Shown one piece after another: positions 3,831-47,482 of a stretch of DNA of 64,000 nt. The DNA comes from Mobula hypostoma (Eukaryota): positions 164,674,001-164,738,000 of the forward strand of contig NC_086097.1 in assembly GCF_963921235.1 (NCBI RefSeq), written 5' to 3'. The position numbers and the translations under genes are program-made. The notes beneath the pieces are model-generated. The model had not been told where the DNA came from. It did not search any database and was given only the letters and a program-made list of their open reading frames with translations. Position 1 is the stretch's first letter, and every line of letters starts with the position of its first letter.

Positions 3831-4256
3831 TGTCTTAACTTATCCGAGAAATCAACTTGTTCCATTAACAACTCCTCAGATAACAATAACTCAGCAAATA
3901 GGTCTCAAGTAACATTCGCATCATTTAAGTGCCAGGAAATAATGGTATCTGACAAGAGAAAATCCAGTTGTCACCCCTTGAGGTTCAGTGGCAATACCAT
4001 AACTGAATTCGCCATCATTAAAACCATAGGGACTGCCATTAATCTGAATCTGAGCTGGGGTAGCCACATATGCAATGTGGTCACAAGAGCAAGAGGTAGG
4101 CTGGGAATTCTGTGGCAAATAACTTTGTCAGCTAACTCTCCAAAGCCTGTGCAGCATCTACAAAGTTCAAATCAGGAGTATGAGACCACACTGTCCACCT
4201 TCCTGGATGTGTTCAGCTTCAATAACACTCAAGAAGCTGAAAACCATATTGAATAT

Positions 4257-5529
4257 GGTGGTGGCATCCGTTAGTCTCGCGAGACCATGGATCTGTGCCT
4301 GGAAGTTGCCAGGGCGCAGGCCTGGGCAAGGTCATATGGAAGACCAGCAGTTGCCCATGCAACGAGTCTCCCCTCTCCACAACACCGATGTTGTCCAAGG
4401 GAAGGGCAAGGGCCGATACAGCTTGGCACCAGTGTCATTGCAGGAGTTGCCAGAACGAGGTTGAAGGCAACGTCGGACTGCCTTAAGGACTCCAGCTCCG
4501 GACTTGTCCTCAGGGTTAATTCCCGAAGCCTTTCCCATGAGTGGTGTTACGTACCCCGTAACTGGGTTGCCAAACCAGCAGAAATGGATCACTCAGTTGG
4601 AGTCTGGATTACTAGAACTAAGAAAGTTTTATTAAAGAAACAAGCAACACAGTACTCTAATCAAAAGGATAATAAATGCAACAGTTCAGCAATGATAAAC
4701 ACACATGTACACAGAATTAGGATAACAGGATCAATCAAGCTCTATCGTCGTCTAGGGGTAAATGACCAGTTTCAAAGTGACGCAAAGTTCAGTTCAATTG
4801 AATTCAGTTCAGTTCGCAGTAATCACTGCCGTGGGAGATGGACAGTGGGGGGAAGGAGAGAGAGAGCAAAAACGAATGAATATTCAAACGGCTTCCACAC
4901 AGACCGATATTCTTCGCAGTCAGCTTTCGGGCGAGCCCTTTTTGATGTCTTCTGAGGTCACCGACCATGACCCCTCCGTTTCCAGATACGATCGTTTCTC
5001 TGCGGTGAACCTTGCACCCAGGCAAGGGTGGACACACACCAGGTTCCCGCCGATCGTGCCTTTCCACCCTGTGCATCTATGGCTTGGTCCCGTGACCAGC
5101 CTTCCAAAACTTCCCACCGACTTGTGGGAGATGCACCGCTTCCAGGGTCTTGTTACCTCAGGGTGTCGTGTGTGTCTTGCCTTAGCGAACCTGTCCCTTT
5201 TTATCCCCCTGCTGGGGTATCGCCTGTCCATCACTTCAAACAGTTCAGGGTTCAAAGGGGGGGGGGCCGCTCTTGACAGCTCTCCTTCTGTCCCTTAATT
5301 AACATCTCCAAATGCTGCCCCATTGTTTTCCTTATCTCTCATTCTCCTGAAGACAGGTGGCAGACCAACTGCTGATCCCACTGGTGCCAGCACAGGACAG
5401 CTAACATCTTAATCTATGTGTATTCTCGTCACAGCGGGTATGGCCGCTAGGTAGCGGAGGTTTGAAATCAGAGTTTTCCCTCTTTTAAATGGACTGCCTT
5501 CCCAGGCTGATGAGCTCCATCTACCCAAA
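4257..5529 (-). mobile_element. Non-autonomous RTE-derived element (RTE 5' UTR-like plus 3' end-like parts, about 380 bp), interrupted by a solo LTR
   Basis: 9-bp TSD ATTGAATAT (4248-4256, 5530-5538); minus strand ends gtctcgcgagactaacggatgccaccacc and carries gggaaaactctgatttcaaacc near its 5' end, both RTE-like from recall. Confidence 0.65.
4545..5433 (-). mobile_element. Solo LTR (Gypsy-type), copy A
   Basis: TGTTAC...GTCACA termini; 4-bp TSD GTGG/GCGG; AATAAA (about 4626-4631) and TATA-like GATAAAAA (about 5197-5204) on the minus strand; homologous to 31941-32800. Confidence 0.85.
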
Positions 5530-8500
5530 ATTGAATATAGCAGCCCATTTATCTACAGCCGTTCACTCACTCCACTGCCCACATACAGTAGAAGCATCTA
5601 CAGGATACACTGCAGCAACTCACCAAGACTCCTTTAGATAGCATCTTCTGAACCCATGGCTTCTACTGACAAAAAGGACAAGGCAATGAAACCAGGGGAA
5701 AACCACCACCTGGAAGTTTCCCTCCAAACCACCGAACATCATGGTTGCCGATCCTTCACTGTCATCTGGTCAAAATCCTGAATCTCCCTCCCCCGTACAG
5801 TACCCTGCACACCAAGGACTGCAGTGGTTCAAGAAGGCAGCTCACCATCAATTGCTTGAGGGAAATTAGGGAGAGAAAGTAAATGCTGGTTCACACTGTG
5901 AAGCCCACATCCCTTAATTAAATAAGAATAAAACTAACCCGCCCAACATTCCGTGCTAACTTGTTTCTCCCTTTCCCAGTTTTGATGGAGAGTCATAAAC
6001 CTGAAATGCTCTTTCCACAAATGCTACCTGCCTCGCAGAGTGTTTCCAGCATTTTCAGTTTTAATTTCAAATTTTCAGCATCTGTGGATTTTTATTGTTG
6101 TTTACACTTTGTTCTCACTTTCTAATGTCTACAAGGAGTTTTGGGATCACTTCCTGGCAAAATTGTGCACTCCAGAATAACACCAAGGAGCTGGACTCCT
6201 AACTGGTCCTACCTGTATTTAATTCAAGACCATTAAATGTTGGCCTTACAGGAAGAGAATAGAGGGACTTGGGAGGTTAGGGACCTCATCAGACATGTAG
6301 CTGAGCACACCGCACACTCTTCCAACCATAATTTTATGGTAAGCAAATCCTTCTCCCTTCATTAGTATCTAAGGGCATTATTTGATAGAGTACATATTAC
6401 AGATTATATATCTATTTGTATAGAGTGAAGTCATGTAAAATATTTAAATAACTGTCCAGTGAGACAGGGACGGAGGGCTGATTGCTTACTTCATTTGGGA
6501 TTGATGGGAGTGGGGAAGTGGTCTTTAGGAGACGACTCTATATCTCCCAGGGTCAGTTTACAGTATGTGCATTGCAAACCTTCATTTTGCTTGCTCCCAG
6601 TATTTTTAGCTGTTGGTCTCTATGCAGCTGGTTGGAAACTTGAGAGTAATATGGGTTCTTTGATTACCAACACTGGTTGTTTTTTCTGTTTGAAGCATCA
6701 GGAGGAGCCAGAGTTATGGCAGGAGAAGGATAATGGATATTACTTGCCTTGGGATGGATTCATTTGCAGTATACCCCAGCTGAGCATCACATACTTAGTG
6801 ACAACTTCAAAGGATTTAACACATGCAGTAGCATTAACCATTGTACAGTGTAGAAGTTTGGCAATGTAGGGAATGTGAGATATGAACTAGCCTGTGGCCC
6901 CAGCATTGCATCTTTGTCTTTCATTTCTTTCATTGAAGCTTAATCAACTGTGCCTGAAATTTCAGTGATTCGGCCCCTTACCTCATCACATTTGCCTACA
7001 CTGTAACCACATTTAAAACGCCCCTTTTAAAAAGGTATTTCTAAATGCAGTCCTATTGCTCATCAATGTGTATAAAGTATTCTCACTGTAATACATCTTT
7101 CTCTGTAATAGACAATCTATAAAATAACTTCTGAATAGAGAAAACTCATCTATCTTTAGCTTTCCCATCTTCATAATATACAAACCCTATAAAATATCCC
7201 TTACCGTACAGATCATATTTTTAAGCTGCCAAATTAAAGTTCCTTCCAGATCTCTGAGTTCCTTAGAACAACATAAGCTTCATTGTCCACTAAAGGCCGA
7301 AACTTACATTCAGCCCACTTTGTAAACTCTTGAATATGATAAGAAACTTAGAAATATGAAGAGGGAACCTGAGAAATAAACTGTGTCTTAGTATATCTGT
7401 GAACTGTTTACTAATAAGAATGATTACAGATAGCATAACTGGTATGCTTTAAAAGCTGCTGTTCTTTATGCAATATCCCAATTCTACCCACTAGAATACA
7501 GTAAGAAAATGACAAAATTAATAAAATGTTCCAACATTAAAGAAATAGTAATTTGTTCAAAAAGCCATTGTAATTCATTCATTTTTTGTTCTGAGCCAAA
7601 ATTCTTAGCTATACAGTCCATCAATGGCGAGGAATTCTCTGACTTTCTGTTACCTTAACAACCCATTCCTGTTTTGTGTGGCAAATGTTTTTGATTTATT
7701 ATCAACAGTCTGTAGTACATCTAGAGGCTGGAACTATCTTTCGGCAGACTTACAGATCAAGGTCTGTGTTAGTACAAGGGGATGTTAAGTACAGGACTGC
7801 TTAGTGAGGCTGGAGATTACCGTCTCCTCCTGCGTGCTGGCACAAGGCAGAGTAGAACCTGACAGGCATGCAAATGATTTGCAGCCCACTTTCGTAAGTA
7901 ATCGTACATTCACGCTGATCAAAATCTGTCATCTTCAACATTATGGCCTTGGCAACTTCTTTGTGGAATTATTGGTTTCACCTATGAGGTGACATGCCAG
8001 ATCTGATTTACTTATAACCTTGAAGATGGTATTTGTGTAATATAAGAGTGGGATCATAGGAATAATTAAATGTGAGGTCATAATCACTTTCTAGTATAAT
8101 TCAATTCTACATCAAGCGGTACATTATATTTGGGATTTTGTTAAATTTTGCAAATGCCAAGCTGCCTGAGTTTTCATTGTGTTGTGGTCCCTTGGATGAC
8201 CAGCATAAATCAGGTTGCAATGGCTGGAAATTCATCAGTGATGATAGCATCAAACACACTGTTTAGTAACAGTTCTGTATTCTATATTGGCATTAAAGTT
8301 GAAGCCACTGCAACCAATCAAGGGAAGAATTTGTAGCTTAATATCCATAGTGAGAATTTGAAATACAGGAAAACTCTAATAATACATTATCTGATTTTTG
8401 GGAAATCCTGATGGTTTGGGAATTCTGTTGCCCACACTTCCTTTACAATCACTGGGGCTTTGCTTCCCACATTCCCTTTAAACACCATAAGATCTGATTC

Positions 8501-9691
8501 CTCATTCTTTAAGCTGACCAAGTTCACTACTAATGCACAACACCTTAAAAAAAGTCGATTAAAGTGTGCTGGAGCATTAATAGGAATAATAGCTAATAGT
8601 CCTAAAAAATCTGGAAGTCCATCAACACCTAATTTCAGCTTTAGTGTTTTACTATTCTGAAAGAAACGCTAACTGAATCATGAGGTGGAGTCATGATGTT
8701 AAAATTGTGTTTCTATTGTGACGATATTTTAATAGACAATGTAAGTGCCTACAAACACACTTCTGTTAATTCTGTATGCTGAACAGTGAAAAGTGTTAAA
8801 GGAATTTCAGGCAGTGGTCACATGTCAAGTTTACAGTCTCCACCAGACTGTCTGGGAGGAGGTGTGTGTAAGCCACATTGCTTAGCAACAGAAGGGAAAA
8901 CTGAAGTCAACACAGAGTGCCTCTGCATAACTCTTTGAGGTCAACCAGTGGTCTTTGCTGTGGAGCAGGTTGTCAGCCACATTTATAATCAAGACTGATG
9001 CATTGCAGGGTAACTCAAAAGATGGGGAGTTATTAGGGGAAAGGCATTAACAGTACAACTCAGAGACTCCTTTTAAGTACTTGCTTTGTGACCTTAAAGT
9101 TGTATATTTCTTTCCAGTATAAAGTCTCAGTGAAATTAACCTCGAAGCGGTTATGCCAGTTAGACATGTCACTTGTTTGGAAAAGATATTACAATACCAA
9201 TGCAAGAAATCTGAAAGTAATGTCAGCACAGGATTAAGGATTGAAATTATTGTGGTGAGTTTCCTAACCACCCACCTTAAATCAGACAATCCCTGGATAC
9301 CCTGGAAAAACAGTGACATTTAATTACCTTTGTATGTTATATAATGAAACTTTATTAGAAAAAAATAGCCTTGAGGCCTTGAGGTAATCTCTCCATAATA
9401 ATTAATTAGAATATGCACCGTAACAACATAGAAGATAACGCCAATAATCTCCAAATAATACTGCTGACCAGATCTTGTGACCCATGCCCCAACTTGCACC
9501 TGTCCGATATAAAGCCCTAATCTCCAGGCAAAATAACTCCCGGTCCCTGAGCTTTGTGAACGCCCCACAAAGACTGATCTTTGGCCAAACTACCTCCAGA
9601 AGTCCCTATTCCTTTTTCAGTCTTGCACCTTTAGTCCTCAGGAGAAATTGAAATTTGCAGTGGCAGAACTCTGAACAAAACATTATAGTAG

Positions 9692-9910
9692 AGCAAAAAA
9701 ATAAAAGCTAGAGAAACTCAGCAGGTCAGGCAGCATATGTAGAGAGAAATGGACAGTTAACTTTGAGGGCTGAGACCTTTCATCTGGACTGAAGAGTCTC
9801 AACCTGAATTGTCGACTTTTTAATTTTCCTGTACTGATGCTGTCTGACTCAGTGAGTTCTTTCAGCAGCTTTTATCCCCCGTCAAGTTTCAGCACCTGCA
9901 GTTTCTTCTG
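9692..9910. mobile_element. Head-to-head inverted pair of Penelope-terminus repeats
   Basis: left arm gagaaactcagcaggtcaggcagcat... is the reverse complement of right arm ...atgctgtctgactcagtgagttcttt. Confidence 0.7.
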
Positions 9911-10249
9911 TCTCCACATCTCTATCTTGCAGCACAGCAAGGTGACTACTAACAGGAAGGTTCTAGTTTGGCTGAGTTTTGATTGATTTTCCCTTTACTA
10001 TTATGGAAAAGAATTAGAGTTGTTCTCCCCCTTTTTTTCTGTGCCAAAATCTTGAGTTTGGTCAGGATAAATAGGGAAATTCTCAGCCTCTAATTGTTTT
10101 GAAATGAAAATGTAATAAAGAGTAAAAAAAATCTGGAGAGAGGTGTTCCTGTAACTGTTCAGTCTCGACTGACTGCTCTTGACAAGGTACATTAACCGCC
10201 TATATGTTTAAGCTTACTTGTAAAGCATGCCCCAATAAAATGATCTTAG

Positions 10250-10545
10250 AAACAGTCTTTCAGAGCTGAAGATGCCTTGCTTCCAAGTGATCAATGAGTC
10301 CAATATAGTCTTTTCGGCCCCTGTCAGAGAAGGGTTAGGTAGGGAGAGGGACTGATTGGGTTCATAAGGAGTCCTTCCACTGCTTGCATTTAGCCTTCAC
10401 AGCCATCTTGTTAAAGAGACATGCTCAGTGCTTCTCTGGATGCATCTCCACTACTTTGGTCAGTCTCGTGCCAAGATTCCCATTAGTTGGCACAGAAATC
10501 ACTTGCTGTGACATACGTTGGAGTCGAGTGCTTACCTTGGAAGTC
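10250..10545 (-). mobile_element. Probable old RTE-type LINE 3' fragment (host of the hAT nest)
   Basis: minus strand reads tgggaatcttggcacgagactgaccaaagtagtggagatgcatcc, similar to the RTE WExLAxDRxxWR motif. Confidence 0.4.
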
Positions 10546-10650
10546 TGGTAACACGGGTCCCCAACCTTGTTTGCACCACAGACCGGTTTAATATTGACAA
10601 TATTCTTGTGAGCTGGCTGACCCGGGGCGGGGGGGCCGGGGATGTTCAAG

Positions 10651-11333
10651 TAGGGTTAAACTCACCTCAACATGATGTCTTTTACAGTTAGGGTTGCCAA
10701 CTTTCTCACTCCCAAACAAGGGGCAAAAGTAGCAGTCAAATCCTGATGAAGGGTCCTGGCCCGAAACGTCAACTGTGCCTCTTCCTATAGATGCTGCCTG
10801 GCCTGCTGCATTCGCCAGCATTTTTTGTGTGTGCTGACAGGACGCTTGTGTTTACCCCGAGAAAGACGACCATGACCATGAAACCTTGCGCGGGCACCTG
10901 TGTGCACATGTATGACATACGCATACGTGACGTGCGCATGCGCATACGTGCCGATTTTTTTCCCCACATACTGTATCGGTTTTGGCTTAATCTTCCCGAC
11001 TACACTGTACATACATTATTTCTACTTTATATAGGCTGTGTATTTATCATATCATTCCTACTTTTACTATATGTACGAGTTATTTTAGGTGTTATGTGTT
11101 ATTTGGTATAATTTGGTAGGTTATTTTTTGGGTCTGGGAACGCTCAAAATTTTTTCCCATATAAATTAATGGTAATCGCTTCTGTGCTTTACGCCATTTC
11201 GGCACGAAAGGTTTCATAGGCACGCTCTACCTTAGCGGGGGAAATACGGGACAAGGGCGGTCCTGTATGGGACTAACCAACTTAGCCCAATATACGGGAT
11301 GTCCCTGCAAATACGGGACAGTTGGCAATCCTA
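10651..11333. mobile_element. hAT-Blackjack-like non-autonomous element nested in the Charlie MITE
   Basis: TIR tagggttgccaac (10689) and gttggcaatccta (11321-11333); repeated acgggac-type subterminal motifs; 8-bp TSD TGTTCAAG (10643-10650, 11334-11341). Confidence 0.8.
10743..10775 (+). ncRNA. Minimal type I hammerhead ribozyme motif in a Penelope-terminus insertion (10742 to about 10836)
   Basis: CTGATGA-A-GGGTCCTGGCCC-GAAAC-GTC: conserved core boxes, GGG/CCC helix II, palindromic ACGT helix III and GUC cleavage triplet; the 5' strand of helix I is missing in this copy. Confidence 0.6.
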
Positions 11334-11960
11334 TGTTCAAGTTCAACAGTGCGTGACAGGGAATGAGGAGAGGTGCAGCTGACTCATATCGTTTCCTCAC
11401 AGCCCTGTAGCACATGCTTTGTGGCCCAGTACCAGTGGCTGGTGACCGCTGTGGTAACAGATACACCGATAATATGGCTTTTCCATCACAGATGGTGTAG
11501 TAAAGTCAGAGTCTCATTGTTGCTCTAGGAGAGTACACTGACATTACTTCACCTATTCTGCCAGAGAAGAATTTTTTAAAGGCAACATTGGTTGTGCTTC
11601 TTTAGTGCTTTGTAGTGCCTGCCGAATGCTCCTTGGGTCTGACATAGAAAGGAGGGAGGGTATCAGTGCTTTTGAAAATTTTGAAATTAAAATCCTTCCA
11701 GAATATTAGAACTAAATTACTTTTGTTTTAAATTAAAGATCAAAGTAAATTGCAGTCCCATGAAGGTTAATTATACTGGTCGTATGACATGAAGGATCAT
11801 CAGAATAAATATCCGTTGCATTGCCTTTCCAATCTAATTTAAACAGTTGCTTAGTCAGATTAGTGTTATTATCCACAACTGATTTCCATTAATACAATTT
11901 CCAGATGTTTCAATACTTGCTGACCTCAGTAATCGGATAACCTACCTATAAGCATTAGGC

Positions 11961-12046
11961 AACATACATCAAAGTTGCTGGTGAACGCAGCAGGCCAAGC
12001 AGCATCTATAGGAAGAGGCGCAGTCGACGTTTCAGGCCGAGACCCT
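11961..12046 (-). mobile_element. 86-bp Penelope-terminus insertion
   Basis: 14-bp TSD TATAAGCATTAGGC (11947-11960, 12047-12060); minus strand agggtctcggcctgaaacgtcgactg...gatgctgc. Confidence 0.85.
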
Positions 12047-12109
12047 TATAAGCATTAGGCGTTGGTCATTATACTATACATGTTGACTGTTATGATCTAC
12101 CTCAAGAAG

Positions 12110-12478
12110 GTGACAATAATCATCAAGGATCCCCGCCATCCGGATCATGTAAACATCTCGCTGCTGCCATCAGGCAGGCGGTACAGAGGCCTGAGATTCA
12201 TGAACAGCTCAGTTCCTAAAACCATCAGGTTCTTGAACTGACCTACACAACCCTAATTTCTACCTTAGCAACAGAACACTAAGGACACCTCTAGAACTAC
12301 TGTGCACTTGTGTTTGCACTCATGTTTTGTTTTGCACTATTTTGTAGAATATACAGTATGTGTAATTTACGTATTGTGCATTGTCTGAACCTACGTGCCT
12401 GTTATTCTGCTGGAAGCAAACCTTTTCATAGTACTTGTACCTCACTTTTAGTTTTACCACTGACCATAAACTCTACTT
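12110..12478 (+). mobile_element. Rex1/Babar-like LINE 3' fragment
   Basis: catcatcaaggatccccgccatccgg...ctgccatcaggcaggcggtacagaggcctga is the reverse complement of the minus-strand Rex/Babar copies. Confidence 0.65.
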
Positions 12479-13338: not shown

Positions 13339-13448
13339 TTTATAATAAACCTTTATAAAAAGGGATGATAATTATGGCTTTTTGATTTTCCAAGCTGCTA
13401 TCTCTGATCTTTTCTTCACTAAAGCACTTTGCCATTTGTATCTTACAG

Positions 13449-13508
13449 AGCTCTTTGAAGAGAAGGGGAAGCCGGGAGTTCTACAAGGATAAGAAAAGTG
13501 CTGCTCAG
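13449..13508 (+). CDS. MTCL1: MTCL1/SOGA2-like coding exon (60 nt, SSLKRRGSREFYKDKKSAAQ)
   Basis: tcttacag|AGC acceptor and CAG|gtaaca donor; open frame; splices in frame to 22291 giving ...[20 protein letters not shown], matching the recalled SOGA-family segment SLKRR...KK...Q-xDSADL. Confidence 0.88.
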
Positions 13509-15229
13509 GTAACATATGCCCCACTCTACTAAGTTAAACTCACTTTATTAAGGATATTTAATTCAATTTAGACTTCTTAATAATTCCATTCAGTTATTCA
13601 TTTTTTTTATTGAACAGCCACTTTCTTAAGCAGATAACTTTTAAAATATGCTTTCAAACATTTTATCCTTATTGTATATAATTTTGTGTCGTTGGTGAGC
13701 ACTGCTTCATAAATCACCTCAAGGAATGCTGGGAGAAGGAAGAGGTGAGAACAATAGCACAGGATAGTTAAAAAGTAACATCTTGCAGGATTTCCGAATT
13801 GCCATTTTTACCACACTATGCAGCAGAAAAATGGATTCTCCCTGCACACCAGCTTCTTCCATCCCAACCTATCCGCATTCTGATAGTTAAAAACATAAAC
13901 AAGATCTGGAAATCTTGAATGGGACATGGCAAGTCCTGGTTACAGGAGAAAATTGAAGAAGAAAGCTATTCAACTTAGCTTATTTGAACAAATTATGCTC
14001 CTCAAATTGGATCATACAGCTGGTTCTTGCATTTCTATTAGTCTGCCAAAAAGTACAATTTGATTGTTTCATATGAAGAAGAATTTTATGATACCTAACT
14101 CAGTTCAAAATGGACTCTCTTTGAAAAATGGGATCTCCTTTTGGATAGTGGACATATCCCTTTTATAATAGCTAAATAGATAGAACAAAACTCAGACAAA
14201 CTATAAAGGCTGCCCTTTTGACATTGAATGCCCTTTACAGTGGATGAATCAGTTGCCTTGGCATAAGGTAAATATGAATTGGCAAATTTGATATCATTGG
14301 AATCCCTTAAGTGTGATTAACATTATAAGATTTTACAATGGCCTTTAGTATATCTTGAAGTGTTTCATCAGGTTTATGAAATTGTGATATCAGGATTATA
14401 GATCACAGAGACAATTTTGGAAATTCAATTAGTCATCCCTGCAATATCTCCAAATACAATCAGCAGAACCTTTCTGATAGTGATTTGAATTTAAGTTCCA
14501 ATATACACTTCTGTAAGATACTTGAAGGCATCAAGATTACACTGTCTGTTCTGTATTTAATGCAAGGACTCAAAGGCAAATGGTCACACTGCTTAATAAT
14601 CCTTGTGGAGAGATAAAGATCCTATTGGCTTGATAACGCATGAATTTTGTAGGTAGGCTCGCCTTTCAGTCCTGTTGGACTCTCTCCTCCAAGACACCAT
14701 TGGCTTTGTCAAACTGGCAAGAGAAGCCATCATTGATAGTACTTTCCTTCAAGGGAATGCTCCTAAGGTAGCAGAATTTGCCCAGGATCTTAAATGATAT
14801 ATCATTAATCAAACAGCAAATGATATGGTTGGAAGATTGAATATGAACTGAATAATGACTTTAGTGTTTTCTAATTTAATTGTAGGGGCAAAAAGCATTG
14901 TTGCTCAAGGTAAAGCAATTGGATAGCAACAAAATGATCCTGAGATTGTAGCCAAATAACACCCAATCATGTGCAAAGTCTATGTCTCACATGACTGAGC
15001 TATTACATTTAAAGATACCATAATCAGTGCGATATCAAAAATACATCCTTGTCACAGCTCCTGATCTTTCCAAGCAGGCCATTGAGAATATTGTGCTCAA
15101 CAGGGTTGGGAGCCAAAAGCCAAACACACTGAATCATAGAGTAGTAGTGCAATACAGTCCAGCGAATCCATGTAACCATGGTGCCCACCCAGTTTCCTGC
15201 ATTCAGTCCATATCCCTCAAACCTCACTG

Positions 15230-22266: not shown

Positions 22267-23631
<1,365 letters not shown>

Positions 23632-24230: not shown

Positions 24231-25559
24231 GCAGGCTAACAAAAACAGGTTCTAATAAGCCGTGCTTTTAACACATGATTTGCAAAAACTAGCTGTGTTA
24301 TGATATTGACTCAAATCAAGTTCAAGGTTTTATTTTAAGAACAGTAATAACCTATTTTAAAGTTTTGTTTCACTGTAGGTCGTGCATTTAAAATTTCCCT
24401 TCACCATTACAAACAAAAATGAGTATAGAAATTCTGAGTTTAGCCCCTAGCCTTTCTTTTCATTTCAGTGTGGCGACGGTCTGAATGATCGCTGTAAGAA
24501 AATGACTCTTACTTAATGCCAATTTCAGAGAAGAGCACCTTTAAGTTCACTTCCCTCTCCCATGCTCCAGGAAAATGATTGGTTAATTATGGTGACAGTT
24601 TTGGGTAGAACATCTTTCTCGTCCACCTGCACTAAATATAGACGTACCGTTTTGTACATGTTTCCAGAATTCAGTTCCATTAATTTCAAACTGAACCTGG
24701 TACAATGCAGGGCCTCCCTGATAAAATTGTGTAGGAATAATTTTTTTCTCTCATTAGTGCCAAAACCCAGTCCAGACAAAGCACCTTGACCTGAAATATT
24801 GACTGTTCATTTCCCTCGTGTGTGACCTGCTGAGTTCCTCCACCATGCCTTCTATTGTGCCAAATAATGTCTTTGACATTGTGGCTGACACAACAGCCAG
24901 AATTTAGGCTAAAGGGGGTGGGAAAAGCAAAAGAGAAGCTGCAGATACTAGAAATCTGAAATATAAATGGAAAATACTTAACATGTTCAGTAACATTTTT
25001 GGAGAGAGAAGGAGATCGAGTTACCATGTCAGATCACTGATCTTTTGTCAGAACTAAGAAAAGATTGATATCAAGTATGCATAAATTGCAAAGAAGTCAT
25101 GGGATAAAGAGGTCAAATGGAATGTTTGTGATAGGATAGAAAGCACAAGAGACTGAAAGACGCTAATGGGGATGCATACTAAAAAAAAGTGCGTGAAGGC
25201 TTGTTAATAACAGATGATCTATCTGCAAATAGAAGATGAATGAAAGCAGAGAAATAGAGAGAAAGAAAGGGAGAAACAATGCTGGAACGTAATGTAAAAC
25301 TCCAGGGAAGCAAAACATTGCCAAGTGCTAGAATTCTGAAATATAAACTAAGTATACCAGAAATATTTTGTGGGTCAGGAACGATCTTTGAAGAGGAGTA
25401 AACAGTTTTCAGGTTAATGACCTTTCATTGGAGCTAGCCAGTTCTGATAAAACGTAAAAGGCTGTTAATCAAAAGTTGTTGAATACCCTCTCCAGAATTA
25501 TAGTTCTCCAAACTCTGCGGATAGCTTAGTAATCCATATCCATTACAAACACAAAGACT

Positions 25560-26345
25560 CCCCCAACTATCTTAACCACTTTGCTTCCTCTGAAAGTTCC
25601 AAGTCTCTATGGTTTCTTCATATCATTTCTAAAGAAGATCGGGGTAGGGTGTCCATTGTCCTCACCTTCTTTCCCATTAGCCTACACATTGAGTCAACCA
25701 CTTGATAACCTCTGCTACAATCACCTCTTCCCTTCCCCCTCAAGCAATCTCAATGGACCATCCTCTCCATGATACTATGATTCACTATCACGTCTGCACC
25801 AACATGCACTCCTCGCGTGCCTTCCCATGCAACTTCAGAAGATGCAGCACTTGACCTCTTCTCTCCTTCCCTTCTCAACATCTGCAGACCCAAACACTAC
25901 TTCTGGATGCAATACTTTTTGATTTCAACATCTGTCAATTTAGCAGGCTGTTTTTGATGCTCCTCTGCCAAATGCAGATTGTATAATTCTTTGCAGAACC
26001 CAACCACTCAGTCTGCATTGGAGATGATGAGCTTACAGTTATCTGTTGCTTTGAATCTCCACCCCACTTCCTGTATGATATCTCTGTCTTTGCCTCCTAT
26101 ACTTGCAACCTAGCCCAAAGCTAGCTTGAAGACCCCGCCTCACCCTCAGGCTGGGCTCATTATGGCTCTTATGCTGGATTTAGCAATTTGAGAAAATTAC
26201 TCTTTCCAATTTATATCAGAACTGACTGGTTATGGGGAAAGATCATCAACTTGAATAATTAACTGTTTTTCAATTTTCACAGGTGCTGCCTGACCTTCTA
26301 AATATTTATAGCTTTGTTTGTTCTTATTTCACATTTCCAGCATTG
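25560..26345 (+). mobile_element. Highly decayed Penelope-like fragment (endonuclease region plus terminus)
   Basis: patchy similarity to 31000-31940 and terminal ggtgctgcctgaccttc...tttccagcatt. Confidence 0.55.
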
Positions 26346-26447
26346 GCAGTGATTGCTTCCCCAGTATTTTGTTGCACGCATTTCTCGCATTGCTTTTCAT
26401 CCTTTGCTTTTTCTCTTCTATCTTCATTCATTGCCTTCTGTTTATAC

Positions 26448-26527
26448 CAGGGGTCCCCAGCCTTTTTTTTTCCCTGGACCTGTACTATTAAGCAAGGGGT
26501 CTGTGGACCCCAGGTTGGGAATCCCTG
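26448..26527. mobile_element. 80-bp hAT-Charlie (MER5-like) MITE
   Basis: TIRs caggggtccccagcc and ggttgggaatccctg; imperfect 8-bp TSD gtttatac/atttgtac. Confidence 0.7.
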
Positions 26528-26609
26528 ATTTGTACCTCCTTGAAACCAACCAGCTGCATTTACCAAGCCTTTACTATCACTTCTCACCAGCATCGACCTT
26601 GTGTCATTC

Positions 26610-27650
26610 ATTCTCTTTCCCTCCCCTCCCCCTCCCCCTCCATCTCCCTCCCCATCCCCACCTCTCTCTCTCGCGCCCTCCTCCCTCTCTCTCTCTCACA
26701 CTGCCTCCTTCCCCCTCTCACTCCCTCCCTCCTCTCCCCTCTCTCTCTCACACTCCCTCCTTCCCCCTCTCACTCCCTCCCTCCTCTCCCCTCTCCTTCC
26801 CTCCTCTCTCCCCTCTCTCTCTCACTCCCTCCTTCCTCTCTGCCCTCTCTCTCTCTCACTCCCTTACTACTCTCTCCCCTCTCTCTCCCACCCTCTCCTA
26901 CCCTCTCCCCCTCTCCCCTTCTCCCCCTCTCTCCCTCCCTCCTCCTCCCCTCTCTCTTTGTTCCTCTCTCTCCCCTCTCTCACTCCCTCCCTCTCCCTCC
27001 CTCACTCATTCCCTCCCTCCTCTCTCCCTCTCCCTCCCCTCTCTCCCTGCCCCTCTCTCCCCTCTCTTCCTCCCTCCTCCCCTTCCCCTCTCTTCCTCCT
27101 CCCCTTCCCCATCCCCTTCCCCTCTCTTTGTCCCTCTCTCTCTCCTTCTCTCTCTCTCACTCCCTCTCTCACTCAATCACTCCCTCCTCCCATCTCGCTC
27201 CCTTTCTCTCTGTCCCTCTCTCTCCCTCTTTCTCACTCCCTCCCTCCTCCTCTCTCCCTCTCCCACCCTCTCCCTCCCCCACCCCCTCTCACTCACTCAC
27301 TCTCTCCTCCCCCCTCCCCCCTCTCCCCTCCCCCTCTCCCCCTCTCCCCTCTCCCTCTCCCCCTCTCCCCTCTCCCTCTCCCCCTCTCCCCCTCTCTCCC
27401 TCTCTCCCACTTACTCCCTCCTCCTCTCTCCCTCTCCCACCCTCTCCCTCCCCCACCCCCTCTCACTCACTCACTCTCTCCTCCCCCCTCCCCCTCCCCC
27501 TCCCCCTCCCCCCTCTCCCTCTCCCCCTCTCCCCTCCCCCTCTCCCCCTCTCCCCTCTCCCTCTCCCCTCTCCCTCTCCCCCTCTCCCCCTCTCTCCCTC
27601 TCTCCCACTTACTCCCTCCTCTCTCTCCCTCTCCCTCTGTTTTCTCCACC
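26610..27650. repeat. About 1 kb polypyrimidine (CT-rich) low-complexity tract with internal duplication
   Basis: almost only C/T on the plus strand; duplicated blocks at about 27238 and 27417. Confidence 0.95.
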
Positions 27651-28583
27651 CTTCACCTTTGGGTAGGTTTGGAAGTTATAATCAGATTTTACTGATGGCA
27701 AACTGATGTTTATTCAGAAGCTTAATTAACCTTTCCATTGATAAACTTGATGAAAGAGTTTCATTGAATTGTGATAGTCCACAGAGAAATGAAAATGGAT
27801 GAACTCTTGATGATTGTGGCGCTCTGATTATCAAACAGTTGTATTCATGTCTGTACCTCCTTGATCTAGTCTGATCTAGGTTCTAGAATTAAGAAGTATT
27901 GCCTCTCCTCTTCCCTGGACTACCCTATCCCGCTTTAATTCCTTTATGTTTTTGCTGTCAGATCACTAACCATTGATTGTGTGTTGATTGTGAATGCATT
28001 GGAGCTTATCTTCACTGCCTCCAATTATCAAGGAGCCACAGACCTACTGACACCCAGTGGAGACTTCTTCTGGAAATTTATTCTTGGTAATACTTAGCAT
28101 GCGAATGTTTAATGGGTTATTTTTTTGGTAGCGTAGTGAGGCAACACCTCATTTGAAATCAAACAAATTAACAATTAAAATAGTAAGTAAAGCAATATCA
28201 GTCACCCATTGATGCCATCAACAAAAGTGTGTGGGTTTACTCATTCATTAAGCATTATGGTCCCAACCACAACAGGTTCCTCAGACCCCTTAAATCGGGC
28301 TTCATGAGCTGAATTACAGAATATAAGAGGCTGTTGAAGAGAAACACTTCACTAGGATGATTCAGAGAAACACACAAGTGTGCCCTCCATGAAAGCAAAC
28401 ATCCCTGCTCCTCGACGCAAGGGGGCTCATAGTCTCCTCGGACAGGCAGCATAATGATTTGTGGATGGTAATTGCTGCTGGCAAAAGACACTGCTGGATG
28501 ATGCTGTCTGCATGGCTGCTTCGAGGATAGGCAAATCTTGAACCAGAAATCCTTCATGATCCGTAAGCTTGCCGTTGGTTTGA

Positions 28584-28766
<183 letters not shown>

Positions 28767-28862
28767 TAGTTTTTTAGTCGTCTACTATACCCATTTTTGT
28801 TTTTTTTTTATTTCCCCCTCTGTCCTTTGTCGTTTTTGTTAAATCGTCCATGCACTCAACAG

Positions 28863-29018
28863 TCCAAACTGAGGGATCAGCCAGAATGGCAACTAGTCCC
28901 CGAACATACTCAAGAGCAAGAGACCCTTCAAAGTCAAGGTGCAGAGGACCAAAGCCGTACAGCTGATGGAAACTACAAAGTTTATGCAATGGAAGACAAG
29001 AACTGCTTCAGTCCAGAG
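28863..29018 (+). CDS. MTCL1: MTCL1-like coding exon (156 nt, SKLRDQPEWQL...KNCFSPE)
   Basis: long polypyrimidine tract then caacag|TCC; GAG|gtaact donor; resembles recalled MTCL1 SRLKEQLEWQL...TCFSLE. Confidence 0.88.
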
Positions 29019-29559
29019 GTAACTAGTGAAGCTCGCATTTTGCATGCAATTCATGTTTTTAGTGAGCCAAACCTAAGTAATTAGTGAAATGCAAAATTGA
29101 CTTCCTATTGAATTCAAACCCCTTTGATATTTGAGATTGTCCAATTTATCCATGAGACTCAATAAGCAACAGGACAGGGAAGGATCTCTTTTCATAGTTT
29201 GCCGTTTTACAGTTCTTTTGCAGTTTTTCTTCTCTTTCGCAGTTTTTAAAGTGTTAAATGCGAAATACTTTAGATTAAGATGAAACAAAGGAAGTGTTTG
29301 CATTTAATGACTATCCTGATAGGTTTGCCTCAATGATATTTTGGCATTATGCTCATTGAATCCTTTTTTTTTAGAAATGCAACTGGGTAGTTAGAGTCCA
29401 TGTAATTGTACTTTGCTCGTGGAAGGAGTGGGATTATTGAGGTGAATGAAAATTTTATTTTCCTTGTAGTCAAGGTCTGTTGGGTTTGTTTTCTCCTAAG
29501 GGACAGGAAGACAACAGATTTTGAAGCTATCTATCTTCATCTGAACACTCCAACTCTCC

Positions 29560-31940
29560 TCTCCCTCTGACATCACCAGCTCTGTTCCCCCATCCCCATC
29601 CCAGCTCTAATCCTTCACCATTCCCTCTGACCTTCCCCTCTCTGAGACAGACGTTCTGTTCTCAGTAAGGGCCTCACCTTTGTCCCACCTTGACTGCACC
29701 CCTGTGAGTTCCGCATCCGCCATGACATTAAGCTCTTCTTCCGCCTCCTCCATCTCCAAACCCACTTCTTTGGCAAGGATTCCACACCCTGCGCTGGTGA
29801 TCCCCTTCTCCCATCTTCAACCCACTTCCTCTTCTTGGACACGCCGCTCTGGTTTTCTGCTTGCTCCGGATCTTTTCATCTCAAGTTGCCGATGAGACAT
29901 TAACCATCTTGATTTCAGCACTCTTTTCTCCTAATCAAACTTACCCCTTCTGAACGCACTGCCCTCCACTTTTTCCACACCAATCCCAACTTTACCATCA
30001 AACCCGGGTGCTGTTGTAGTGTGGCGCTCTGACCTCGACCTTGCTGAGGCCAGGCAGCAACTCTCAGACACCTCCTCAAACCTACCCCTTGAAGGGGACT
30101 CCACTCGAGACCATCAGAAAACTGCCTTTGACACCATCACTGACCTCATCCACTACCATCAAACTCATAGTTCCCTTACCCCGCACTGCTCACTTCTTCC
30201 TCCTACCCAATATCCACAAACTGGACTGTCTGGGTTGGCCTCTTGTCTCTGCCTGCTCCTGCCCCACTGAAATTGTGTCCTTGTATCTCAGTTCCATTCT
30301 ATCCCCCTTGGTTCAGTCCCTTCCCACCTATACCTGCAACACTTCTCATTTCCTCGAGATGCTCAGTAACTCTCAGTTTCTTGGCCCTGATGGCCTCGTC
30401 TACACCACGGATGTTCTGTCTCTATACACTTTCTACCTCCCCCGTCAAGAGGGTCTCAAAGCTCTGCTTCCCTCTTGACTAAAGAACCAACCAATCCCCC
30501 TCCACCATCACCCTTCTCCGTCTGGCACCTTGAACAATCTTTCCTTTGGACTTTCTCCAGACTCAAGGGGTAGCCATGGGCAAACGCATGGGCCCCAGCT
30601 ATGTCTGCCTTCTCACTAGCTATGTAGAACAGTCCATGTTCAAAGCTGTTACTGGTTATACTCCCCCAACTCTACCTCCGCTACATTGATGACTGCTTCA
30701 TGCACCCATGCTGAGCTCATCCATTTTATCAACTTTACTTCTAACTTCTTCCCTGCCCTAAAGTTCACTTGGCCCTCCTCTGACATCTTACTCCCCTTTC
30801 TTGATTTCCCTGTCTCCATCTATAGAGACAAACTGTCAACTCGACAATACTTCTCCTTCCCTCCACCCCCTTTCCTGTAAAAATGCTAGTCCCTTTTCTC
30901 AGTTTGTTTGCCTCCGCCACATCTATTCCCAGGAAGTGGCTTTCCATTCCAGGACATCAGAGATGTCCTCCTCGTTTAAAGAAAGGGGTTTACCTTCCTC
31001 CACTATAGATGCTGCCCTCACCCACATCTCCTCCATTTCCTGGACATCTGTGCTCACCCCATCTTCCCTCTGCCTTAACAGTCAGTCCCTCTTGTCCTTA
31101 CCTACCACCCCATCAGCCTACGCATGCAACACATTATCTTCTGCAACTTCTGCCATCTCCAGAAAGATCCTACCACTGAACCTATCTTTACCTCCCCCCT
31201 CCCCCACCTTCCGCAGGATCGCTCCCTCCGTGATTCCCTTGTCCATTTATCCCTCCCAGCACTTATCCCTGCAAGCGGCCGAAGTGCCACACCTGCCCAC
31301 ACACCTCCTCCCTCACCTCCATTCAGGGGTCCCAGGCAGACCTTCCAGGTGAGGCAAAACTTCTCCTGCAAATCTGCTGGGCTCACCTATTGTGTCCAAT
31401 GCTTCCGATGCGGCCTTCAATACATTGGTGAGATCTATTGTAAATTTGGGGACCGCTTCATTGAGCACCTCCTCTCCATCAGCCACAAGTGGGACTTCCT
31501 GGTGGCCAAACATTTTAATTCCGATTCCTATTCCTGTTCCGAGATGTTGATCCATGGCCTCCTTTTTAACCAAGTTGAGGCAACCCTCAGGGTGGAGGAG
31601 CAACACCTTATATTCTATCTGGGTAGCCTCCAATCTAATGGCATGAATATCGATTTCCCCTTCTGTTAAACAAATTCCATCCCCTTACCTCTATTCCCCA
31701 CTCTGACCATTTACCTATTACTTACCCCTGGGTCCCCTCCTCTTCCCCTTTTTCCTATGGTCCGCTCTCCTCTCCCATCAGATTTCTTCTTCTCCAGCCT
31801 TTGACCTTTCCCACCCACCTGGCTTCATCTATCACCTTCCAGCTATCCTCCTTCCCCTCCCCCAACCTTTTTATTCTCGCATCTTCCCCTTCCTTCTCGG
31901 TCCTGAAGAAGGGTCTCAGCCCGAAATGTTGACTATCTTA
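29560..31940 (+). mobile_element. Decayed Penelope-like retroelement (RT plus GIY-YIG endonuclease); terminus resumes at about 32801-32850 after a solo LTR
   Basis: RT motifs FFLLPNIHK, PLVSACSCPTE and GVAMGKRMGPSY; GIY-YIG region YCVQCFRCGLQYIGE..RFIEH..VAKHFN..EEQHLIF..LQSNGMN (31124-31669); many frameshifts. Confidence 0.88.
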
Positions 31941-32800
31941 TGTTACGTACCCCGTAACTGGGTTGCCAAACCAGCAGAAATGGATCACTCGGTTGGAGTC
32001 TGGAGTACTAGAACTAAGAAAGTTTTATTAAAGAAACAAGCAACACAGTAATCGAAAGGATAATAAATGCAACAATTCAACAATGATAAACACACATGTG
32101 CACAGAATTAAGATAACAGCATCAATCAAGCTCTATCGTTGTCTGGGGTAAATGATCAAATTTCAAAGTGACTCAAAGTTCAGTCCAGTTAGTAGTTCAG
32201 TTCGCAGTAATCGTTGCCATGGCGATGGACAACGTGGGGGAAGAGAGACAGAGAACAGGAACAACTGATCATTCAGAGCACTGCTTCACTCACAGACTGG
32301 CGAGATGGCTCACAAGCAACTTTTGGGCGGGTCCTTGGTGATGTCACCTGAGGTCACCGACTGTGACCCCTCCTCCAGATGCGGTCGATCCTCTGCAGTG
32401 AACCCGGCACCCAGGCAAGGGCGGACACACACCGGGTTCCCGCTGATCGTACCTTTCCACCCTGGTCGTTGTCTGGTACTTCTCACCCACTCGTGAGAGG
32501 CGCACCGCTTCCAGGGTCTCGTTACCTCGGGTGGCGTGTGTCCTGCCTTAGCGAACCGGTCCCTTTTTATCCCCCTGCTGGGGTATCGCCTGTCCCTCAC
32601 TTCAAACAGTTCAAGGTTCAAAGAGGGGAGCCGCTCCAGACAGCTCTTCCTCCCACATCCCTTCATTACACATCTCCAGACGCTGCTCCATTGTTCCTTA
32701 TCTCTCCTTCCCCTGAGGGCAGGTGGCAGACCAACTGCTGATGCCACTGATGCTAGCCCAGGCCAGCAAACATCTTAATTTTATGTGTATTCTTGTAACA
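31941..32800 (-). mobile_element. Solo LTR (Gypsy-type), copy B
   Basis: perfect TGTTAC...GTAACA termini; long identical stretches with 4545-5433; splits the Penelope terminus; TSD imperfect (ctta/ctat). Confidence 0.85.
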
Positions 32801-34767
32801 CTATTCACTTCCATAGATCCTGCCTGACCTGCCGAGTGTGTGTTATTTTGAATCTAAAACAAAGAGAAAAATTACACATGGCCTTACTTCATCAAGAATA
32901 GAGAGAGAAGTCTGTGAGAGATAATGAAACATTGCCCAAGGGTGGAAGTTAAGCATGCCGACTCATGTTTATTCTTCAAGCACAATGTTGGTAGTGATCC
33001 ACACATTTGTAGTTCTAATTCATAGAAATGGATTCTGTTTCTTCCATTTCTGGCCTCAAGTTTATTTTAAAGGCTTTCGAATCTTTGAGATTTATGATCA
33101 ATGAGACATTATCCCATTCAACCAAGTCCACACTGCAATCATTGGGAATTAGGAATGAAATTTATTCAAAATTGATTTGTGATCGGGCAACAAAGGCTGA
33201 TTTTTGTGAGTCCAGAGTGTGTAAGGATTCTCACCATGCAGTATGCATCAGAGAACTAGATTTGTGAAGTCACATTAGTATATGCACTGCTTTATTACGT
33301 GCACTGAGCATTTACAAGTTGTTTATTTTCCTGCAAATTTTGGAAATTCTGCTTATTTGTCATGCCATGGGATTTCAAATTTGACATGTTTCAAATGGTG
33401 GAGCAGTATCTCTTCTTTGGTTGTCTTATATATAAACCCTGGTTTGGAAAGGGAAAGATGTGCTTGACTAACAACCTTGACAATATTGAAAATTTAGATA
33501 AAGTTCCACGTAAACAGTTACTAATTAAAAGGCTCATGAGACCTCAGTGGAAGAAATGTTCTAATAAATGAGCTTCAATAAATGGGTGCTTTTAGAAGGT
33601 TGTCGGGATTGGAGTTGGAAGAATGGAAGTGATAAGATGGTTAAAGAAGACAAACAAGACAGATTTTGCTCTTCTCCAGTTGACTATATAACACTTTAAT
33701 GAGAACTTCACTTTCCAGTGCTCTTGAAAGCAGATTATTCACTCACTGCACTAAAGACCCTTCCTGTTCCCTTTGCTACATACATTCAAGTATCATTTTT
33801 TGATTTAGAACATTTTAAATTTATTATATATTTGAATATAATATGAATATATTTTTTAAAATCAACTCCTAACTCCATAGTAGATCAATTGAGAGTGTTT
33901 GGCATTGACAGAACAGGTTGCACCTTTAACCTTTCAACCCTGTTTAATGTGTTATTAATTGGAAGCGATGAGCTTGATTCTTGATCTAATGTGCATCAGG
34001 TATCCCAAACCAAATCTGTGAACATGTCAGCTGAACAGTTTGAATATCACATGCCTCCCGTTGCCATGGCAGCCAGCCAGCAGTATGCTGTGCTCAATTT
34101 GCTGTACAATATGTAAAAATGGAACTTGCATTTTTCAGTATTCACATGTTTCTGTACTGTGTTCCTAGCAAAAGTTAGGGTTTGATCTACATATGTAGTT
34201 CCAATAGTAAAGCCAACACTATCCGTGATAGTGGAGCTAAAGAGTCTTGGAAACTTTCAAATGGAAAGTTTTAAGTCAGTCAAGCAGGAAGGACATAAAG
34301 TAGATAAAAGTGACAACAGGAGAAGTTTTGATCTTGATTGAGAGTATAAAAACATTCTATACTCTTCTTAAACAATATTGCTCCGCATGAAAAATTAATG
34401 TAATTTTTTTTTCATAATAGGCTGGAGGGAGTGTAGCTTGAATGCCCAAGAATTATACCGGGCCTTAAAGGATTAAAATATAGAGATACTATGTAAACTT
34501 GCCATCAGTTTCTTCCAGTATGAGCAGATATCTGATTGAGGATCTAATCTGACAGATGTTCAAAGACCATTTCTTTGATGGAAAATCTTATCAGAGAGAT
34601 TTATCATCTTCAATTCACAAAATAACAGAAAGCTATGGGCAGAGTGAGGCTGGCTATTTATCCCAGTGAGACCTTACCAGCTGAAGAGCAATTCATCTCA
34701 TCCAACTCCCAACTTTTGTCCTTCCCTCAGCTTCAATTTGAATCCAGCTACTGACTATGTAAAGAAA

Positions 34768-36049: not shown

Positions 36050-37170
36050 CAGGAGGCGTTGTTCCTTGGGTACTGAGGGAATGAAGAGTGGAAGCTGCAA
36101 AAGCACCAGACAAAGTTTTCTGTTTATCCCCAGATATTGGAGCTAGTGCCAGAGGACAAGAGAAGTGAAAATATTATAGACCGGTTTAGCAAATGGGATA
36201 CAGATAAAGACAGTAAATACAGATCAATCAAGTTTGTATCATCGGTGGAGAAACATTTAGAAATGTATTGAAAATATCATTATTTGATTTTGAACAATAT
36301 GGACCAATAATTGAAAATCAGCTGGCATTGTTCAAATTAAATTGTGTTTAACCAATTGGGTGTTAATTTTATGGGTTTGGTATATGGATTTTAAAAAGGC
36401 ACTTGACAAAGTATCACAAAAAAACCTTATTAGCAAAATGAAGGCATGTAGAATTAAATGTAGAGTGGTTATATGGACAAGAAGTCATGGTAAGTTGTTT
36501 ATTAGTCTAGAGGGATGTACGAAAGAGTTTTCTCTGGAGAGTATATGATAATGACTTGAATTTAGATATACAGGGAAATAATTCCAAAGATTTTTGGACT
36601 GAATGATCCTCAGAAGTATGACAAATAATAAATCAGTTAACAACAGGCATTCGATGGACACAATCAGACAAATAGTCGATGAAGTTTAACACAGAGAAAT
36701 GTAACGATGGAAGAATATGGAGAGAAAACATGACCTAACTGATTACATTTTAGGAAGGAAGAGACAAGGTGTATATCTACACAAATCTTTGAAGACAGCA
36801 GAATAATTGGAGAAGGCTATTGAAATCTCTATGGGAATCTTGAAAATATTGCTGGAGAAGTGGATTGAAAAACAACTGTTAAAAATGTTGGCACTAGACT
36901 GCAAGTACTGGAGCAACACACAGAGGAGTTGGAGGAACTCAGCTGGTCAGGCAGCATTTATGGAGGGAAATGGACTGTCGGACTGAAAACCTATATCTAC
37001 TTATAGACACGGCATTTTGGAAGTATGTAAAGACTTGTAGAGGATGCAGAAGAAAGTTACTAAAGTGGTATTAGGGACAAGAATCTTTAATTATACGAAG
37101 ACTTGTAAAGCAGTGGTTGTACTACTTCAGGCAGACAAGATTAAGAGGAGACATTCAGAATCAAGAACTT
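36050..37170 (+). mobile_element. Very old CR1 RT remnant with a Penelope-terminus insertion at about 36912-36990
   Basis: CLTN, YMDFKKALDKV and MQKKVTKVV remnants. Confidence 0.6.
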
Positions 37171-37690: not shown

Positions 37691-37852
37691 CAAAATTCAT
37701 AGCCTCGACAAATTCAGCAGTGAGATTTTCTACAGAAATGGACAGAAATTTGAAGGAAAATAAAATTAGATGGATATGAATGAGGAGCAGAGAAGCAGGA
37801 CAAATTAGATAGCTCTATCAATTGACAAAGTGGAACAAAAGGCCTCTTTACT

Positions 37853-39674: not shown

Positions 39675-40592
39675 CTTGCCGGATCATTCTAGAAGCAGAG
39701 AAAGAAAATAGGAAAAATACAGGAATTACAGGGATGTTCAACATCAAAGAAGAAGGTTGAAGAGAAACCAAATGAGTCTGGGATAACTATCCAAATGAGA
39801 TGGATATGTTATTATTCTATTATGGATTTATTGAGTATACCCACAAGAAAATTAATCTCAAGGTTGTATATGATGACATATATGTACTTTGATAATAAAT
39901 TTGCTTTGAACTTTAAATTTCAACTAAGATGGATCAGGCAGGTTATGTATACATGCAATTTGATTTTTTTTTCTTATTAACCTGTTCATCAAGAAGAAAC
40001 ATTGACCATCTTTGTGCTCTCTCTCCATTCTACATTTGAATCCCTCTGCAGTTGAAGTTCTTTGCATTTGGAATCTACTGATGAGAAAAAAATTAGGAGT
40101 AAAACAAATACAAGAATCTGAAGCAAACAAAAAAAAGAACTGCTGGAGGATCTCAGCACGGCAGGCAAGGGAATAGTTGGTAGTTCAGGCCAAACTGACC
40201 ATTCTGTTGCCTCCAGAGATGCTGCTTGAGTTCTTTCAATAGTTTACTTTTTGCTTGAGTGAAAGTAGTTGTGACGCTACAGCAATTTGCTGTCGATCAA
40301 ACTTCCTGTAATTTATTGAGAAAGCCAGTGAAAATGGTTGCTAAATTAAGCGTCGATTAAGTGCTTGGATTTAAATTTCTCTTGCTCTGGTTTTTGAAGA
40401 TTTTATCTAGGACAAAGAAATAAAGAGATCGTTATTTTAGATTTTGCAATCACAGCTATGGGTTATGTCCACAAGTAACACTTTCATGATCACTTTTGCA
40501 ATAACTGAGGAATCTTTGAACAGATGTTCTGTTCCAGGGATATTCATTTATGCAGCTTGAACTGAATATGTTTCCTTGTCTCAAATAAACAG

Positions 40593-47330: not shown

Positions 47331-47482
47331 GCGTGTTGAAGCGTGGAATAATATCTCAGTTTTTCATTGGATTATTGTGTAAGTCTTGAAAAGAATTACT
47401 ATGTTTCAATATTAAGATTTGAGTTCTATTAATTTCATGACACTTATAGTACTTTTTTGTTCTACTATTTGCCTTGTGACAG

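Follow-up and report, generated by a model that had tools for sequence, protein, structure and literature searches.

A dispersed repeat with a minimal hammerhead motif in the MTCL1 region of the ray Mobula hypostoma, very probably the decaying pseudo-LTR ends of a Neptune-type Penelope-like element

A short repeat that can be folded on paper into a hammerhead ribozyme occurs at position 10743 of the window, the stretch of 64,000 nucleotides of the Mobula hypostoma genome analysed here (NC_086097.1, positions 164,674,001 to 164,738,000, forward strand). Its position in the neighbourhood of the gene MTCL1 raises the question of whether it is a working intronic ribozyme or the residue of a mobile element. 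The initial annotation regarded it as a dispersed terminus of a Penelope-like element (PLE) and listed seven copies, all of which (7/7) were recovered with the right position and strand; about eight more had been overlooked, including two head-to-head inverted pairs. An iterated nhmmer search with a profile of the repeat gave 23 matches at E ≤ 1 and 16 at E < 0.001, the latter representing 15 copies, one of them split in two. The 64-kb window thus holds about 15 copies of this PLE-end repeat, nine on the + strand and six on the − strand. The same profile gave no match on the reversed window, which rules out a chance motif. The repeat extends beyond the hammerhead, by about 65 or about 100 nt more on the 3′ side of the predicted cut. 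Judged from contig depth, and not as a copy number, the repeat is very abundant: the summed depth on the short repeat is about 2 × 10^6, as compared with about 10 on the unique flanks, a ratio of about 10^5.

The motif corresponds to the published definition of the minimal type I hammerhead and to the Acropora Neptune example, as had been proposed. The CUGANGA, GAAA and UH core letters are found in the family majority and in the 10743 and 31898 copies, and an extra A between positions 9 and 10.1 is present in all six scored copies. The 10.1-11.1 pair is G-C in 14 of 15 aligned motifs and G-U in the remaining one. Helix III is reduced to an ACGU palindrome without a loop in the family majority, in the 10743 and 12021 copies and in seven of the eight strict matches found in relatives. 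The pairing of helices I and II, on which the reading had been staked beforehand, is present in the family, with 5 and 4 bp, respectively. Helix I was established from loose contig ends together with the window copies, and is absent in the 10743 copy itself. Helix II has 4 bp closed by a tetraloop, not the 3 bp initially described; its fourth pair is U-A in the loose-end consensus of organism C versus U-G in the window majority.

The conservation of the motif was assessed in 80 related loci retrieved by protein alignment, those ranking best among 310 that were confirmed. A strict descriptor found eight matches in these 80 loci and none in 20 shuffles. The descriptor check suggested for the motif was thus successful in relatives, but in the window it gave no passing copy on either strand, and Rfam at the gathering score reported no hammerheads in the window or in five related loci. 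Six sub-threshold Rfam matches at 9600-12200 were all unrelated, and an exact degenerate motif was absent from metagenome and viral contigs (0 in each). A relaxed descriptor was applied within 400 nt of the ORF end (shuffled control, 0-1 matches per 300 kb) to the 40 loci whose flanks were long enough; 18 of them had a sense motif, 88-273 nt downstream of the end of the ORF, and none had an antisense one there. The commonest motif of the relatives (L003-type) agrees with the Neptune motif of Acropora digitifera given in Fig. S3 of PMC4209133. Covariation was evaluated on 15 motifs, five being window copies and ten chosen from 35 locus matches. Pairing cells made up 83% versus 58% in shuffles (0/500 as high), in an alignment pre-selected for pairing and hence partly circular, and both-side changes occupied 39 cells versus 12.5 in shuffles (0/500), with 10 of the 15 motifs pre-selected by the pairing rule. 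Two of five covariation measures did not rise above the shuffles (113/500 and 95/500). Three different pair types occur at both 2.1-1.1 and 2.2-1.2. Since ten motifs were chosen by the pairing rule, the covariation count is partly circular, and the position of the motif behind the ORF is the independent result. Inverted upstream copies with antisense hammerheads lie beside the Neptune-type ORFs of loci L003, L011, L026, L028, L053, L058 and L075, the same arrangement as that of the inverted pairs in the window.

The identity of the element is indicated by the copy at 31898-31935 (+). It is preceded by a decayed, frameshifted PLE reading frame of the Neptune type at 29617-31666 (+), comprising an N-terminal region, a reverse transcriptase (RT), a linker with a CX4CxxC finger and a GIY-YIG endonuclease. 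The tblastn search matched residues 166-888 of a full-length Penelope-like protein (P0003) to this frame, over 29617-31663, with an E-value of 4e-79, and a second protein (P0001) matched the same frame with 54% identity. In Pfam, P0003 scored above the cut-off for RVT_1 and slightly low for GIY-YIG (20.8 bits, below the cut-off of 22.6), and no family was reported for the window's own broken PLE frames (4/4) or for P0001. The order of an RT followed by a C-terminal GIY-YIG domain, a feature of membership in the endonuclease-bearing (EN+) PLEs, is thus present via the P0003 match. Besides the linker finger, a CxxC precedes the YIG box of the endonuclease, with histidines downstream. A CX2-5CxxC finger in the linker distinguishes Neptune and Nematis from Penelope and Poseidon, which lack it, as described in bioRxiv 10.1101/2021.04.23.441226. 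The linker therefore makes the element Neptune-type rather than Penelope- or Poseidon-type, and the latter two clades were ruled out. On the basis of the linker finger and the Acropora motif match, used in place of an RT tree, the element is classified from its sequence as a Neptune-type PLE of rays.

Between the frame and the hammerhead lies a pyrimidine-rich 3′ UTR or pseudo-LTR (31667-31897, +), so that about 230 nt separate the RT and GIY-YIG frame from the hammerhead, which follows it in the sense orientation; the presence of this frame directly upstream bears out the attribution to a Penelope-like terminus. The pseudo-LTR is split by a later LTR-like insertion with TG...CA ends at 31941-32800 and continues at 32801-32842 (+). 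A second copy of this 860-bp LTR-like element, 82% alike, is located at 4545-5433. The 31898 hammerhead is the best preserved in the window, a distinction that the 10743 copy does not hold. Its core boxes are intact, contrary to the claim that the other copies carry core mutations, and it has 4 bp in both helix I and helix II, with A at N7 and U at H17. Positions 15.2 and 17 have changed from C to U, the former altering the palindrome.

The 10743 copy belongs to a 5′-truncated pseudo-LTR fragment of 95 bp (10742-10836, +), which consists of the hammerhead from position 2.1 and about 65 nt downstream. The hammerhead relic (10743-10775, +) includes the first core box at 10743-49, the extra A at 10750, helix II at 10751-62, GAAA at 10763-66, CGU at 10767-69, C17 at 10770 and the 3′ strand of helix I at 10771-75, and cleavage is predicted to separate 10770 from 10771. 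The copy retains both core boxes, the extra A, a 4-bp helix II, the ACGU palindrome and C17 unaltered. The initial annotation was right about the intact core and the missing 5′ strand of helix I, but overlooked a change of G1.1 to A, in the pair beside the cut, and the CCUG loop. The family as a whole keeps the 5′ strand: in three DNA runs, the loose contig ends before 10741 show a pyrimidine run followed by CAG. Among those listed, 674, 614 and 452 contigs stand behind these ends, with a 30-letter agreement of only 0.38-0.39, and the C at position 2.5 is retained in all four window copies that could be scored there. Judged from its sequence, the 10743 copy would have been dead on arrival for want of the 5′ helix I strand, with G1.1 lost since. 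The pyrimidine run with CAG directly 5′ of the core resembles a splice acceptor, from which the start of the 10743 copy is at most one base away. In the Penelope element of Drosophila virilis, the end of an intron falls inside helix I (PMC4209133); no splice donor was seen by eye in 31667-31897. It can also be mentioned that an ATG within the core opens a frame of 14 codons at 10746-10793, and a second ATG follows right after its stop.

In the part compared with contigs, 9600-12150, those of all four runs skip 10742-10836, with joints from 10741 to 10840/10845 and from 10738 to 10851. This indicates that the 10743 copy was inserted into a different repeat; no target duplication was found around 10742-10836. 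The host repeat covers 10554-11451 (strand not assigned), is flanked by an 8-bp target duplication (10546-53 and 11452-59) and is absent in organism C, where one contig joins 10545 to 11452. It is a high-copy repeat with similar ends, which we take to be hAT-like from the length of its target duplication. It is probably a non-autonomous DNA transposon, perhaps nested.

A young copy lies nearby at 11961-12046 (−); it begins after A9, carries one change in its hammerhead part and is flanked by a 14-bp target duplication (11947-60 and 12047-60). Its first core box was lost by truncation, not by the core mutation claimed earlier. The match to contigs of organisms B and C breaks off at 11946 and one contig of organism A continues into the copy, which suggests an empty site in B and C. 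The insertion at 11947-12060, apparently absent there in these two organisms, is usable as a lineage marker. No RNA source was listed for the interval 9500-12300.

Several of the remaining copies are old. A head-to-head inverted pair at 9699-9873 (9699-9792, −; 9790-9873, +), delimited by profile and alignment, is spanned by contigs of organisms A, B and C, and a second, older pair occupies 40131-40239 on both strands. The copy at 24767-24853 (+) retains a perfect helix I and a candidate 8-bp target duplication with its core destroyed. In the copy at 53410-53546 (−), which has the longer 3′ extension, G12 and A15.1 are changed, and in that at 54184-54280 (+) A6 and G12 are changed and the 3′ strand of helix I and an AUC site are intact. 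The profile also detected degenerate copies at 5976-6060 (+), 25357-25428 (−) and 26233-26317 (+), as well as an old copy with an internal deletion at 62527-62607 (+). In the copy at 36905-36985 (−), the core and helix II are gone and the 5′ strand of helix I abuts the 3′ strand at the cleavage site. Both core boxes are kept by only two of the six scored copies, 10743 (lacking helix I) and 31898; together with the failure of every window copy under the strict descriptor, this supports the earlier opinion that most are probably dead.

Three CpGs of the motif straddle 11.1-G12, 15.2-16.2 and C17-G1.1, which are sites of the catalytic region. Changes were counted at 13 of 36 positions in these CpGs versus 18 of 166 elsewhere (Fisher p 5e-4, for six copies and with the reference drawn from the same copies). 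The clustering of changes on CpGs is the pattern of neutral methyl-CpG decay. From this sequence pattern, the loss of G12, the palindrome, C17 or G1.1 in single intronic copies is attributed to methyl-CpG deamination.

The gene around these copies was correctly named. MTCL1 matches lie on the + strand in six exons (13440-13526, 22279-23571, 28860-29078, 40569-40718, 47480-47716 and 54571-54756), and the exon at 22279-23571 shares 97% identity with MTCL1 of Hypanus and 85-88% with that of other batoids. The claim that the 10743 copy is part of the MTCL1 pre-mRNA is less direct: residues 1-419 of MTCL1 have no match within the window, so the copy is placed only by inference in an upstream intron of the long isoform. 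The repeat copies show no sign of any role for MTCL1, and a domesticated intronic ribozyme was rejected. Other repetitive sequences of the window include a low-complexity tract of about 1.3 kb, very rich in C and T, within an MTCL1 intron (26350-27700) and decayed stretches of LINE-type RT at 37809-39577, 44791-46986 and 48645-52963, recognised by an RVT_1 match at 37809-38630 and otherwise from ORF translations. Fragments at 58855-61375 resemble a decayed LTR retrotransposon, with protease-, RT- and integrase-like words; Pfam returned no family for 60412-60933.

The ends of the insertions bear on how the pieces arose. Nine of the 15 pieces in the window begin 7-34 nt upstream of the predicted cut and then run well past it, and three begin further downstream of the cut. 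The other three have starts at a distance of 0-3 nt from the cut according to one alignment, but other alignments show upstream remains in each of them. The 3′ ends fall at +64 to +71 in five of the 15 pieces and at +89 to +116 in eight. In the related loci, the cut is crossed by 37 of 42 matches and is the starting point of none; the only one that ends there (L037) is an inversion junction into the ORF and was not counted as support. As most copies cross the cleavage site, the RNA template was apparently uncut or religated at that point. The insertion hallmarks of PLEs comprise 5′ truncation, inverted adjacent copies and an optional tail of 30-40 nt (bioRxiv 10.1101/2021.04.23.441226), and the window shows two inverted 5′-truncated pairs, its two end points being separated by about 30 nt.

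It would be possible to regard the pieces of 90-130 bp not as truncated copies but as a non-autonomous, SINE-like or retrozyme-like family moving on its own. The very high depth on a short piece (about 2 × 10^6 versus about 10, which is not a copy number) and the start of several copies just 5′ of helix I agree with such a family, as does the derivation of retrozymes from pseudo-LTRs (bioRxiv 10.64898/2026.07.22.740005). It is nevertheless improbable, considering that the 5′ ends vary from −34 to −7 relative to the cut, that no promoter or tandem array was recognised among the 16 window matches and that truncated PLE insertions typically show 5′ inversions (bioRxiv 10.1101/2021.04.23.441226). 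A retrozyme array was rejected, with no same-strand tandem among these 16 matches and no Rfam hammerhead. A different suggestion concerns the host transcript, in which the 31898 core might pair with the substrate half of the copy at 54185 and cut the MTCL1 intron 380 nt before an exon. On paper all the pairs form (5/5 in helix I and 4/4 in helix III), and both copies are in sense. The prospect is extremely remote, since the duplex has 9 bp only, its energy of −9.4 kcal/mol is less favourable than that of the two monomers (−14.1) or of the best dimer (−20.8), and the copies are separated by 22 kb and two exons; besides, minimal hammerheads are slow even in tandem (PMC4209133), and the match itself is a consequence of complementary CpG decay.

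Whether the motif cleaves at all in the living element is a more serious matter. Folding of six single window copies revealed no excess structure (z from −0.85 to +0.97). The lone motif of the window majority is predicted to fold shut, core positions G5-G8 pairing with 15.2-17, and the same is predicted for five of eight intact relatives with pair probabilities of 0.8-1.0. Nearest-neighbour energies are −19.9 kcal/mol for a double hammerhead, −25.4 for a pair of monomers and −33.7 for the most stable dimer. Such modelled energies, which do not favour the double hammerhead, suggest that assistance from protein or tertiary structure is required and cannot decide activity. The motif might accordingly be kept for a structural or binding role, such as RT recruitment, pausing or translation start, while hardly cleaving in vivo. 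The genomic copies crossing the cleavage site and the folded-shut relatives speak for this possibility, and in the Anolis element core mutants left insertion unaffected and no RNA-seq ends were reported at the cut (PMC11167929). It is still rather unlikely, because the catalytic letters are common to rays and corals while the helix letters vary, and because the G8C/C3G rescue proved ribozyme chemistry in the Anolis element (PMC11167929).

It is therefore preferred to regard the repeat as the pseudo-LTR end of a Neptune-type PLE, an identity that is almost certain, and the copies as its decaying 5′-truncated ends, which as a whole explanation is very probable. Reverse transcription would start inside the stretch downstream of the cut, as in the Anolis Poseidon element, would copy uncut or religated RNA and would usually stop early, in many cases near the structured motif. 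The early stops would leave promoterless fragments of 90-130 bp. In a live element, two pseudo-LTR motifs might swap their helix I strands and pair via the ACGU palindromes, forming two weak active sites, probably aided by the element's protein, since the lone motif folds shut. Cleavage would then trim unit-length RNA from tandem transcripts; single intronic copies would have no partner and no trimming role. The window contains no intact element and no tandem pair. A dimer or protein-assisted cleavage step in the live element is considered reasonably likely. The earlier statement that such hammerheads cleave as dimers goes further than the literature, which describes either low dimer activity (PMC4209133) or protein-assisted cleavage that is dispensable for insertion (PMC11167929).

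The core-deleted copy at 36905-36985 could in principle be a cDNA of self-cleaved RNA, the RT having left the 3′ fragment at its cut end and continued on the 5′ strand, kept in place by helix I. Its junction, at which the 5′ strand of helix I runs directly into G1.1, coincides with the cleavage site and is one base away from what an obvious 3-nt microhomology would produce. As a single case, it may be an ordinary deletion instead, and its origin from cleaved RNA is judged highly improbable. If it were true and such joints piled up at the cut, they would provide a countable fossil record of PLE hammerhead cleavage in vivo, which is not shown in the literature found.

Minimal hammerheads of metazoan PLEs, including a Neptune example, were described by Cervera and De la Pena in 2014 (PMC4209133), where a Schistosoma motif had no activity as a monomer and low activity as a dimer. 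The ray family shares with them CUGANGA, the extra nucleotide before G10.1, G10.1-C11.1, a 4-bp helix II with a tetraloop, the loop-less ACGU palindrome, the GUC site, the short helix I, the pseudo-LTR position and dispersed single truncated copies. It differs from the Acropora digitifera Neptune row in a helix I of 5 bp versus 3 bp in the coral, and its abundance, mostly of decayed copies, seems far higher than the figures for coelacanth and frog, 4,000-9,000 motifs (PMC4209133). With the Neptune EN+ PLEs of bioRxiv 10.1101/2021.04.23.441226 it has in common the RT and C-terminal GIY-YIG, the CX2-5CxxC finger, 5′ truncation, inverted copies and a tail of 30-40 nt, whereas the window has only a decayed 5′-truncated copy, classified with Neptune and Nematis not separated by a tree. 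The Anolis Poseidon element PAc (Frangieh et al. 2024, PMC11167929) is similar in its hammerhead within the pseudo-LTR, two downstream end points and copies of uncut RNA. In that element, RT starts at two internal sites with uncut RNA as the main substrate, the hammerhead cleaves only with protein, and insertion has no need of cleavage. PAc belongs to another clade, and the RT starts and protein-assisted cleavage measured there are only inferred for the ray element (PMC11167929). Non-LTR retrozymes likewise have a type I hammerhead, an origin in PLE pseudo-LTRs and dispersed monomers (PMC7229834; bioRxiv 10.64898/2026.07.22.740005), but the window is without tandem units of 170-400 nt or a canonical loop-loop hammerhead.

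The rows of Table S1 and Fig. S3 of PMC4209133 covered here include no cartilaginous fish, and no published ray or shark case was found in a literature search whose scope excluded Repbase/Dfam and most subscription papers. The 2026 retrozyme preprint covers one chondrichthyan genome, and its supplementary tables may list the ray family (bioRxiv 10.64898/2026.07.22.740005). The family adds rays to a known class, that of minimal PLE hammerheads, dating from 2014. The finding is also a warning that the intronic 'ribozymes' of cartilaginous fish are mostly transposon debris. The abundance of the repeat and its mixture of young and old copies would allow insertion ends to be mapped against the cleavage site, testing whether the motif is cut in vivo.
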